Virus record (IMG/VR): IMGVR_UViG_3300046171_000314
Span: 32,001-96,000 of that record
Length of the DNA stretch: 64,000 nt
Origin: a virus
Strand: one strand, 5' to 3'
Shown here: positions 23,645 to 48,122 of the stretch, piece by piece
Layout of the letters: the number at the start of each line of letters is the position of its first letter
How positions within the stretch are numbered: position 1 is the stretch's first letter
Program-made: the position numbers and the translations under genes
The notes under the pieces: model-generated
What the model was told of the DNA's origin: nothing
Databases searched by the model: none
Seen by the model: only the letters and a program-made list of their open reading frames with translations

Positions 23645-23669
23645 CTATACGATAGAGAAAATTTTACGT
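23645..23669 (-). promoter_or_regulatory. putative ECF-like promoter ACGTAA-N10-ATCGTATRG
   Basis: Same motif at 36553-36577 and 36802-36826. Confidence 0.65.
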
Positions 23670-41371: not shown

Positions 41372-41537
41372 CCTTTAAGTACCTCTTCCCCAACTCAGGC
41401 TTGAGACCCAATTCCTTGTGCCTCTTATCTCTTTCTTTTTCATAGGCTTTGCCACTAGAGCAACTACAAATGCCTCTCAACACTTTACCACCAAAGTAAC
41501 CGTTGGCATAACCACGACCACCACACTTAGGGCACAT
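41355..41537 (-). CDS. small Zn-finger protein
   Basis: CPKCGG...CSCSSG. Confidence 0.6.
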   Translation of the reverse strand: MCPKCGGRGYANGYFGGKVLRGICSCSSGKAYEKERDKRHKELGLKPELGKRYLKDARRY

Positions 41538-41860
41538 TATTTTTTCACTAAATTTGTGGTATCCGAGCCATCAGGTAAGCGATCACAGATCACCCCTGTC
41601 AAGTCTACGTTGTGTAGGGCAGATTTCAGTTCATTGAAAGATCTCTTCCAATCCTGTTCCATTACAACCTCTGTCCGACCCTCGTGTCCGTGAATAGACC
41701 TGACATCCCCCATGCTATCGTACATTGCAACAGAAGGAGTATCCGACAGCCAAGTAAGGGCGACTTTCCCATTATCAAAAATCACCCCTTGTGCGATTCT
41801 ACCTGTGCCACTAATCCCATTCTCATCTTCAATTCTTTGTAAATAAAATAATTTCGCCAT
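41537..41860 (-). CDS. conserved phage hypothetical protein
   Basis: FYLQRIEDENGISGTGRIAQGV.F.NG...IHGHEGRT. Confidence 0.75.
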   Translation of the reverse strand: MAKLFYLQRIEDENGISGTGRIAQGVIFDNGKVALTWLSDTPSVAMYDSMGDVRSIHGHEGRTEVVMEQDWKRSFNELKSALHNVDLTGVICDRLPDGSDTTNLVKK

Positions 41861-41861
41861 T

Positions 41862-42215
41862 TCAATCTCCTTTACAGAGCAACCATTGATGTAATTTGTT
41901 TTCCCATTCATCTGAGAGTGTTCCTTTGAAGGGGGGTTGCCCCATATCTTCTTTTCTATAATTAAAGATCAAGTTCCGAAGCCTCCAAATGTTCGGAGGA
42001 ACTCGACAAGAGTGTTCTACTCTTCTATAAGGAGTACCCTTAAAGAAGCACAGAACTAATAAATGATGCCTCGCTTCAAATTTTGCTTCATTCAGTTTCG
42101 TCTGAAACCTTGACTTGAATCTGCTCTTCTTGTGGGTTTTCCTAATGATCCTACAAATGTGCTCAAACTTCTTTATTTCTAAGCGTAGTAACTCAAATTG
42201 AAGCCTATTCATCAT
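41862..42215 (-). CDS. basic hypothetical protein
   Basis: EARHHLL....KGTPY..VE. Confidence 0.65.
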   Translation of the reverse strand: MMNRLQFELLRLEIKKFEHICRIIRKTHKKSRFKSRFQTKLNEAKFEARHHLLVLCFFKGTPYRRVEHSCRVPPNIWRLRNLIFNYRKEDMGQPPFKGTLSDEWENKLHQWLLCKGD

Positions 42216-42492
42216 CTTCTTTGTTCAACTCTTGCTTAAGTTTCTTGCCACATTTGAAGGTAGCAATTGTCCTATCAGGAATCTTCAAAGGTTCGTTGGT
42301 TCTTGGATCTACCCCATCAAAGCCTTTTCTATCAGAAACATTGAATGTTCCAAAATCCGATAAAGTGACTTTATCCCCCTCAACAAGAGATTTCTGTATC
42401 TCTTCTAAAAAGGAATTGATCAGAAGGGTCAGTTCTTTCCTTGTTTTTCCGTGCTTCTTTGCCATCGCAGCAATAATTCTAGTCTTATTCAT
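42205..42492 (-). CDS. hup: HU/IHF-family DNA-binding protein
   Basis: MNKTRII, VTLSDFGTF, GVDPRTNE, FKCGKKLK. Confidence 0.9.
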   Translation of the reverse strand: MNKTRIIAAMAKKHGKTRKELTLLINSFLEEIQKSLVEGDKVTLSDFGTFNVSDRKGFDGVDPRTNEPLKIPDRTIATFKCGKKLKQELNKEDDE

Positions 42493-42597
42493 ATTCTCTC
42501 CGACTATCACTTCTACGGAAAAACATTGAAAGAATAACGAGATTTCAATTGAGAAAGAAAAAATCGCTATCTGTCTTCTGTGGTATAGTGTATTTAT

Positions 42598-43098
42598 TGG
42601 GGTTAAGAATCGAGTTCTTGATTAGTTTCCTCTTGAGGAATTTTCTGTCTTTGTGCTGTTCAATTTTATATGTGTAATTGCTGTTATATTTTTCTTAGTT
42701 TCTATGGCAGTTTTACTTTTGGTAGTTTTATTTTTGGATAGTGTAGGTGGGTCTTTCAAGAGGGACTTAAATAAATTCAATTCTTAACCCTATATTTATT
42801 AAGATTGAATTCTTACATCTACATAAAGAAACAAAGGATAGGAATCCAATTCGATAGTCCTTTATGTTCTGTAAGTATTTAAACATCACCTGTGTAGATC
42901 CTTCCCTTTGGTTATTCAAACCAAGTATGAATCTTTGATGGCTCATACTTGGTAGGGGAGGCAGGTGAGTCTTCTTATTCAGAATAAGACGAAGTGTTCT
43001 TTATTCGAGATCAAGCGGTAACTCTCTCAATCAAGAATTAATCTTGTTGCCAAGATCGAACTTCTCGTACCAACGGTCAGTTGTAAAAATCAAAGAAC
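42598..43098 (+). ncRNA. candidate ~500-nt structured non-coding RNA
   Basis: ORF-free; nested stems tile the interval; many G-U pairs on + strand; TGGTATAGT just upstream. Confidence 0.6.
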
Positions 43099-43305
43099 GA
43101 GGCTTTTGGGGGCTTTCGTTTTAATCCCTAACCCCTCAGGAAATATGAAGATATTGATCGACACATCTTCTGATGCTTCTTTTCTGATGAGAATCTTTTG
43201 GGTATCGAAGCCATAGGGTTTCTCAATAGATCGGAGAACACAAGGAAAAAGCATTTTGATTGTATAGTAAAAATCCAATTCCTGCAATAATTTTTCAATA
43301 AGCAT
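43090..43305 (-). CDS. hypothetical protein
   Basis: 71 aa ORF, weak RBS. Confidence 0.35.
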   Translation of the reverse strand: MLIEKLLQELDFYYTIKMLFPCVLRSIEKPYGFDTQKILIRKEASEDVSINIFIFPEGLGIKTKAPKSLVL

Positions 43306-43326
43306 AGAAGGGTAAAAGGAGAACTT

Positions 43327-43662
43327 GTGCCGAAGATAGCAAACCCATTGACAGGTGAAGAAGCCGAAAAAATATTATCCTCTTATGTGATCGATCTCTT
43401 GATGGGGAAGGGTTTAGTGTCTTTCCCCCTATCTTCTATCGGAACTCCTTCTCCTGTTGTGTTGGTTAAGGGAACGCACTCTTCGATTTACGTAGATCGA
43501 GATCAGTGGCAGACTTGTGTCCGACCTATCTTAGAAGATGAATCCTATAAAATATTAAAAACCCCAAAAGGTCGTGAGTTGACAAGAGGGCATGGGTATC
43601 ACCGTTGGCAAGATTTGATAGGAAAAGCCTTGAGAAAGAAGTTCAATTCAAACGGCTACTAG
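43327..43662 (+). CDS. hypothetical protein
   Basis: AGGAG RBS, GTG start. Confidence 0.65.
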   Translation: MPKIANPLTGEEAEKILSSYVIDLLMGKGLVSFPLSSIGTPSPVVLVKGTHSSIYVDRDQWQTCVRPILEDESYKILKTPKGRELTRGHGYHRWQDLIGKALRKKFNSNGY

Positions 43663-47510: not shown

Positions 47511-48122
47511 ATGAATAGAAGCGTTTACTCCGATTGGGACGACTTTACTGTGGGAGATGATTATGTTTATTGTGAAGAGGACTTTAAGACCTTTCAATAT
47601 CTTGTCGACAAGTTAGAGAAACAAACAAAGAAAGGCATCGATGCTCTTTTACAAAAACACGGTTTCGGAAATCTGACAGTAGACTTTTTTGACATAGAAG
47701 AAACCGAAATGGATGAAGATGGTTACGATATTCATGCCGTAATGTTTTTCAATGGTAAAGGAATCTCTACCTCAAAACTGCAAGAGATTACTTTCACTCT
47801 CACAGGCGATGTGTCCCTCAACACAGAAGAATATGAGTATATGGGCACAGTTCAATCTTGGATGGAATCCCCTCCATATGAGGTTGGCTACATTGAGGTT
47901 ATCTGCCCTGATCGGAAGATAAGTTCCTTTGAGATTATTAAGGGAAAACGTGCAAGTTCTAGTTTTTCGGCTAATGCCTTTATTAAGGCAATTGATGAAT
48001 ACTTAAATAATTTTAGCAAATCGAGAAGAGCCTCAGATTTGGCAAGAGTCCGAAAAAAGAGAGCACATCAAATCTCCAAGAGAAGAAAGCGTTCTAGTGG
48101 GTGCAATTGTCGTAAAAAATAA
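47511..48122 (+). CDS. acidic protein with basic tail (KRAS/RRAS junctions), putative virion protein
   Basis: Late motif upstream; inserted between nrdJ and recD2. Confidence 0.6.
   Translation: MNRSVYSDWDDFTVGDDYVYCEEDFKTFQYLVDKLEKQTKKGIDALLQKHGFGNLTVDFFDIEETEMDEDGYDIHAVMFFNGKGISTSKLQEITFTLTGDVSLNTEEYEYMGTVQSWMESPPYEVGYIEVICPDRKISSFEIIKGKRASSSFSANAFIKAIDEYLNNFSKSRRASDLARVRKKRAHQISKRRKRSSGCNCRKK

Follow-up and report, generated by a model that had tools for sequence, protein, structure and literature searches.

The stretch between the HU gene and the replication genes of this phage, an uncultured marine jumbo phage, is an undescribed control region that is real and selected. We consider the chances even that it is a composite control region read on the plus strand, and not one large non-coding RNA. 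Its conserved units are probably a promoter (P1), a fold-back module with a probable mini-ORF, a unique core and a second promoter (P2). A single 500-nt RNA, a mimic of 6S RNA and an origin primer are each possible, but less likely. According to the composite reading, transcription from P1 (GGTATAGT class) would begin 1-3 nt ahead of an 18-bp stem, which would join the 5' end to a segment about 175 nt downstream and thereby close a module of about 195 nt. The U-rich interior of this module would be a current or recent mini-ORF for a hydrophobic peptide of 30-45 residues, with a weak Shine-Dalgarno sequence (SD) in a hairpin and its stop in the closing stem. Lineage-variable hairpins would come after the module, in some lineages as a true terminator. 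The core of about 145 nt would then act as a sequence-specific cis site, either as RNA leader or as DNA, that governs entry into a replication operon with its own promoter P2. The sequences themselves show that the region is conserved, that the closing stem covaries, that the interior of the module is periodic and that the promoter motif recurs; transcription, translation and the action of the core we infer. If the composite reading is true, it provides a first handle on how replication genes are switched on in an uncultured clade of marine phages of about 290 kb. The switch would involve a promoter of the early type and a fold-back mini-gene, together with a unique site that is conserved, and one more 'structured non-coding RNA' recognized by eye would turn out to conceal a gene for a tiny membrane peptide. 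As the element is restricted to a small clade of uncultured phages, it is of limited wider importance for now.

The window, which denotes the whole analyzed stretch of 64,000 nucleotides, covers positions 32001-96000 of an IMG/VR virus contig of 147.9 kb with a completeness estimate of 56%. The gap (42493-43326) is bordered on one side by the HU gene (42205-42492, minus strand; 92 bits to Pfam PF00216), which probably starts at ATG 42492. On the other side lies an ORF of 111 amino acids (43327-43662, plus strand) with a GTG start at 43327 and an SD-like AAGGAG close upstream, followed by clamp-loader-like genes, ribonucleotide reductase and a RecD2-type helicase. The 111-aa ORF is conserved at the head of the replication cluster in both clades of relatives. 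A confident alpha/beta model was predicted for its product (pLDDT 87); the protein belongs to no Pfam or PHROG family and the model has no PDB fold match, so it gives no hint on function. The gap had been described as the longest ORF-free stretch. A crude ORF map bears this out insofar as it is the longest ORF-poor stretch of the 148-kb contig, where no other gap is as long or as rich in AT (GC 0.34 versus about 0.41), but an ORF of 44 codons lies inside its rod-shaped part.

Related loci were gathered via the delta-like protein, the 111-aa protein and HU. They fall into a close clade with alignable gaps (L003; L005, L038 and L039; L007-L010 and L027; L032-L034; L037) and a distant clade (L011/12, L013/14, L015, L016 and L030/31). 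Proteins neighboring the gap in the distant clade are 42-46% identical to those of the window, the gene order is the same and the gap comprises 775-900 nt. One distant relative sits on a 289-kb contig. By synteny, the gap is present in at least nine lineages from the two clades. Profiles of four gap blocks gave no distant-clade match with nhmmer, and BLAST of the gap found no match in 50,697 phage records or 72,556 plasmids. In IMG/VR and JGI, protein queries and a pattern of 21 nt from the core added a single genuine relative (L027); the remaining 11 matches to the pattern were due to chance. There is no close cultured phage: among phage records, the best match at the protein level has 38% identity and stems from a 485-kb uncultured phage. 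A third HU lineage (L044-L046, HU 72% identical) has a gap of just 167 nt before a 70-aa gene, which shows that the long gap is not universal in phages with this HU. The leftward HU operon harbors a gene of the Acb5 family (41537-41911 in the window, and in relatives), an anti-CBASS family name that was taken from precomputed Pfam hits of the relatives; in the window this gene is assigned to PHROG 7499. A PhoH/PIN gene is located further left in relatives.

Comparison of the window with L003 revealed 45 substitutions in 757 aligned bases of the gap, corresponding to 94% identity, whereas four-fold sites of four flanking genes are only 59-75% identical (about 67%). Every segment of the gap is 88-100% identical between the two, and the indels comprise 3, 1 and 10 nt. 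With respect to L005, L007 and L032, identity at four-fold sites is 41-54% and thus near saturation, whereas the core segment 43041-43122 is 83-84% identical to all three. Identity in the gap well above that of four-fold sites indicates that the region is functional and no spacer; judged from these alignments, this holds throughout its length, and selection is strong. Three-base periodicity is absent from the gap substitutions between window and L003. Coding in other frames or strands was not detected, as these substitutions show no periodicity outside the rod and the minus-strand register of the rod ORF contains stops. With only about four independent close lineages, statistical power is low.

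P1 is a -10-like octamer on the plus strand (42582-42589) with the sequence GGTATAGT (GGTATAAT in relatives), invariant as GGTATA(A/G)T in 7/7 sequences of the close clade. The 148-kb contig contains 10 copies of GGTATAGT, at least six of which are intergenic and face a gene start; some are directly followed by an SD and an ATG. The earlier note had placed the beginning of the structured stretch about 9 nt after TGGTATAGT, and this sequence is indeed found at 42581-89, with the first stem starting at 42599. Since the stem begins 10 nt past the P1 octamer, the 5' end of the RNA would sit at the foot of the stem, with a predicted transcript start at about 42596-42598. This position of P1 directly before the first stem is the main argument for a reading on the plus strand. 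The surplus of G-U pairs, which had been taken to point to a plus-strand product, is not decisive: the plus strand folds with lower energy, but z-scores are alike on both strands. In curated helices the ratio of G-U to A-C ranges from 10:3 to 20:11, compared with 1.2-1.7 expected from base composition alone, and counts over all possible helices were uninformative on the strand.

The second promoter-like sequence, P2 (TTGATTGTATAGT, 43256-43268, plus strand), is conserved in all close-clade lineages, precedes the 111-aa ORF and the replication genes, and has GTATAGT in common with P1. At the opposite end of the gap, the HU-proximal motif CATTGAAAGAATAACGAG (42523-42540) is the sole gap sequence common to the close and the distant clade. 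It is probably part of the minus-strand promoter of HU or of the HU 5' UTR, and may be an operator. Allowing at most one mismatch, its core 12-mer occurs at 6 sites in the window versus 1.2 expected. Three near-identical promoter-like sites of the form AACGTAAAATTTT-N6-8-ATCGTATRG are located on the minus strand of the window at 23645, 36553 and 36802. These ECF-like sites (AACGTAAAATTTT...CGTATAG) have GTATAG in common with P1 and P2, and a single -10 element may be combined with different upstream elements in this phage. The conserved core of the gap does not match this ECF-like promoter class.

The module downstream of P1 is a rod of about 195 nt (42597-42792) with a folding z-score of -5.8 on the plus and -4.7 on the minus strand, and the rod stems listed in the earlier note are present in the sequence. 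Its closing stem H1 is formed on the plus strand by a 5' arm at 42599-42616 and a 3' arm at 42774-42791. In 7/7 sequences the first 28 nt past the promoter pair with a segment 160-220 nt downstream; the duplex reaches z-scores of -3.5 to -5.9, and for each sequence at most 1 of 500 shuffles was as good. The 5' arms differ between lineages (GGGGUUAAGAAU... in the window, GAGGUUUAGAGUAGA... in L005, GGAGUUAGAGAAUUAG... in L007 and GGAAUAGAGAUU... in L032), and in every case the partner arm shows matching alterations, among them a paired deletion of one base in L007 versus L032. Compensatory changes preserve H1 in four diverged lineages. Arms that change in step across lineages are good evidence for a selected single-strand pairing, and the RNA-type covariation expected of a structured RNA is real in this closing stem. 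The column-wise covariation count for the rod from the MAFFT alignment was unusable, because the arms of L007 and L032 were out of register, and per-sequence duplex tests were used; in the rod alignment, compensatory changes occur in 10/28 alifold pairs. A small hairpin further inside (UUCCU-CUUG-AGGAA, 42627-42642, plus strand) is kept by RNAalifold with compensatory changes in four lineages and holds the only SD-like GAGGA upstream of the mini-ORF. The long-range stem 42629-42636/42756-42763 proposed for this part holds in the window and L003 only.

A functionless relic of a miniature inverted-repeat transposable element (MITE) would also have terminal inverted repeats like those of the rod, which in the window is in addition flanked by an 8-bp direct repeat (TATTTATT at 42591 and 42794). 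However, the arms covary instead of decaying, and the rod occupies the same site in every close lineage. The transposon reading was rejected because the rod is single-copy in the contig and the flanking repeat, which is restricted to the window and absent in L005 and L007, is not conserved. A relic of this kind is barely credible.

The interior of the rod is the least conserved part of the gap, being 88% identical to L003 and 52-56% identical to the other lineages. It harbors a candidate mini-ORF of 44 codons (42653-42787, plus strand), which extends from GTG 42653 to TAA 42787 with its stop inside the 3' arm of H1. The predicted product consists of a transmembrane segment rich in F, L, V and I and a basic tail, and comparison with Pfam, NCBIfam and PHROGs gave nothing meaningful. 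In the window, 23/28 codons contain T at position 2, which alone is not significant (39 of 300 shuffles). The T periodicity is significant in 7 of 12 sequences from relatives (L007, L032, L037, L011, L015, L016 and L030), where no more than 7 of 300 shuffles of the same composition attained the observed level. As T at position 2 keeps the frame open automatically, the openness of the frame adds nothing beyond this periodicity.

Indels in the rod interior of the close clade are in frame (3 nt between window and L003, and 3 nt between L005 and L039), and the hydrophobic ORF of L005 and L039 comprises 37-38 codons. L037 (195-451, minus strand) carries a 57-nt tandem duplication in the rod interior relative to L032, which is in frame with the hydrophobic frame. 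The distant clade has an ORF of 31-40 codons at the same place, with a GTG or TTG start and one conserved TGA stop context. Its indels are nearly all multiples of three, substitutions increase from codon position 2 over 1 to 3 in most pairs, and no clear SD was found upstream of it. The mini-ORF is broken in L003, where the GTG start is changed to GTA, and in L007, L032 and L037, each with one in-frame stop. Substitutions between window and L003 are distributed 3/5/5 over the codon positions as read by hand from the alignment, without third-position bias. The spacing to the SD is long, with GAGGA 13 nt upstream of the start and inside the small covarying hairpin. The rod probably carries a gene for a tiny membrane peptide, and the mini-ORF of the window may be translated with a chance near one half.

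An SD in a hairpin together with a stop in the closing stem would point to a hok-type fold-back, i.e. a translation-restrained mRNA for a small peptide, and not to a decoy of RNA polymerase. The hok/sok mRNAs, known from work of the Gerdes laboratory, reportedly combine a hydrophobic ORF of less than 60 codons with a 5'-3' fold-back and a ribosome-binding region in a hairpin. By analogy, the rod may be compared to them with respect to its candidate short hydrophobic ORF, the 5'-3' fold-back (H1) and the SD-like site in a hairpin. In contrast to hok/sok, however, the module lies in the replication control region of a lytic phage, its ORF is not intact in all lineages, and the mini-ORF matches no known toxin family in Pfam, NCBIfam or PHROGs. 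No gene for an antisense antitoxin was detected; for an antisense or divergent antitoxin RNA, only one weak promoter-like site was found on the minus strand (42759-42730, 9/12 matches), and direct reading showed that its -10 part is not kept in L005.

A decoy had been proposed in the form of a 6S-like RNA, in which case the rod would sequester host sigma-70 RNA polymerase. The rod is similar to 6S RNA in size (about 190 nt; here about 195 nt) and in shape, with paired 5' and 3' ends and an internal unpaired U-rich part. The 6S model (RF00013), however, did not match at the gathering score, at E<=10 in a 1-kb search (1051 nt) or at E<=5 in the gap of L007. Nor could a conserved central bubble of fixed geometry, as a mimic of an open promoter, be aligned, and the interior is not alignable between lineages. 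This interior is hypervariable, tolerates the 57-nt duplication in L037 and shows a codon-like periodicity, and a 6S-like decoy therefore fits poorly, whether the ORF is translated or not. We regard it as highly improbable. Matches to miRNA precursors in L007 were rejected, as they reflect long hairpins only.

The hairpins that follow the rod vary between lineages. Domain 2 (42796-42880, plus strand) is a weakly folding, poorly conserved spacer with z-scores of -1.8 on the plus and -2.4 on the minus strand, and its identity to L005, L007 and L032 is 49-51%, which is about the neutral level. The two stems proposed for it, D2a and D2b, exist in the window but fail in other lineages, and folding is marginal. 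Only a 4-bp mini-hairpin, D2c (42836-39/42844-47), covaries and is the sole part of this domain that is kept. Domain 3 (42881-42969, plus strand) is a stable branched hairpin (z -4.8 on the plus and -4.2 on the minus strand) that is restricted to the subclade of window, L003 and L005. It is 74% identical to L005, in which the proposed stems D3b and D3c are kept, but other hairpins occupy its place in L007 and L032. The next hairpin (42970-42992, plus strand) is kept in position, whereas its sequence is replaced in L007 and L032: the window has UCUUAUU/AAUAAGA, L007 has AUCUCUC/GAGAGAU and L032 has AUUUCUC/GAGAAAU, which is compensatory with respect to L007.

A canonical intrinsic terminator is located 12 nt past the closing stem in L007 and L032, with an 11-bp stem followed by UGUUCUUUUU. 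In L007 it lies at L007:3198-3236, where the 11-bp stem is followed by TGTTCTTTTT, and L032 has it in the same place. L005 and L007 harbor about 133 extra nt between rod and Domain 2; the L007 terminator is inside this insertion, which is absent from the window and L003. A scan of the plus strand inside the gap of the window revealed no terminator-like site.

These differences bear on the proposal that the gap encodes one large structured non-coding RNA of a new class (about 510-700 nt), which would begin at P1, end with the invariant GGCUUUU (about 43107) and act in trans. The 518 nt under consideration fold better than dinucleotide shuffles (z -3.8 on the plus and -5.5 on the minus strand), and known RNAs were not recognized: a scan for tRNA and tmRNA found none, and no Rfam family was detected at gathering score or E-value thresholds in the window, the gap (E<=10) and nine related loci. 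Such an RNA would fit P1, the stem at the 5' end and the conserved core at the 3' end, which finishes with a helix and CUUUU; it would also fit the strong selection across the whole gap and the folding of the rod and Domain 3, far better than that of shuffles. As a long non-coding stretch of a phage that is conserved and structured in part, the gap is also reminiscent of GOLLD and ROOL, although there is no Rfam match and the architecture is modular and much less structured here. However, the folding signal is uneven among the domains. The canonical terminator separates rod and core in L007 and L032, Domains 2 and 3 differ between subclades, about 133 nt are inserted in some lineages, the rod interior resembles coding sequence and the core, including the proposed multiloop, is without a folding signal. 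A single RNA of about 500 nt is thus not supported as the conserved unit. Of the 'new large phage RNA', what stands is a conserved, selected and undescribed region with covariation in a stem, but not the one large RNA, which we consider unlikely. A discrete, abundant and structured RNA of about 510 nt in the window to about 700 nt in relatives, which would be made from P1, end at the invariant GGCUUUU and represent a new class of large phage RNA that acts in trans or as a replication primer in this clade, and in which the hydrophobic ORF would be a mere relic of its origin, is quite unlikely too.

The best-conserved part of the gap is the core (42993-43137, plus strand), a unique sequence of about 145-150 nt whose motifs do not recur in the contig. 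The multiloop proposed for this part was not supported: 42965-43140 folds no better than shuffles (z 0.0 on the plus and -1.1 on the minus strand), the closing helix 42996-43002/43092-43098 never covaries and is broken in L032, and the helix 43006-10/43063-67 fails in L005. It fits slightly worse than a four-helix structure (43041-46/43051-56, 43063-68/43097-102, 43071-74/43080-83 and 43108-12/43132-36), in which 91% of the cells are paired in six sequences. Compensatory changes were observed in 4/21 pairs of the core versus 0-2 in slid controls. The first of these helices coincides with a 6-4-6 palindrome or hairpin (43041-46/43051-56) and the third is a small hairpin (43071-74/43080-83); the core also contains the invariant GGCUUUU, and 43108-12/43132-36 is a possible helix only. 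The four compensatory pairs could reflect RNA pairing or symmetric protein sites on DNA, and the core may accordingly be an RNA element or a DNA site. Within the composite control region, it stands out as the strongest candidate of these genomes for a regulatory or replication site that acts in cis.

In a rival reading, the gap would be a lytic replication origin that is activated or primed by transcription from P1, via an R-loop or an RNA primer. The core would then be an initiator-binding or primer-transition site, and HU would assist. Transcription-primed origins are represented by oriF and oriG of T4 and by RNA II of ColE1, and the gap resembles these in that a unique conserved site beside replication genes is preceded by a promoter some hundred nt upstream (here about 500 nt). 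Its length and AT content exceed those of all other gaps, it is located at the head of the cluster of clamp-loader, RNR and RecD2 genes, and its core is unique, conserved in sequence and thermodynamically unstructured, with a 6-4-6 palindrome. However, the core is devoid of iterons and repeated boxes, and no similarity was found in 72,556 plasmids, ColE1-type origins included. The gap shares no sequence similarity with the known origins. Moreover, GC skew tracks gene direction only, and neither a long-range covarying stem nor uniform conservation over all 800 nt is expected of an origin. The support that the unique, sequence-conserved site beside the replication genes lends to an origin primer is circumstantial, and we consider an origin fairly unlikely.

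The core segments at 43006, 43063, 43098 and 43113 change together in L007 and L032, which fits alternative pairings, but these yielded no convincing terminator. A leader-peptide attenuator is not supported, because pairing 1:2 fails in L005, pairing 3:4 is a weak stem of 5-7 bp, the ORF stop lies 220 nt upstream and the scan of the gap of the window gave no terminator. A near copy of the core palindrome ATCTTG-N4-CAAGAT, ATCTTGTCGACAAGTT, is located at 47599-47614 of the window inside a 207-aa gene and is probably due to chance.
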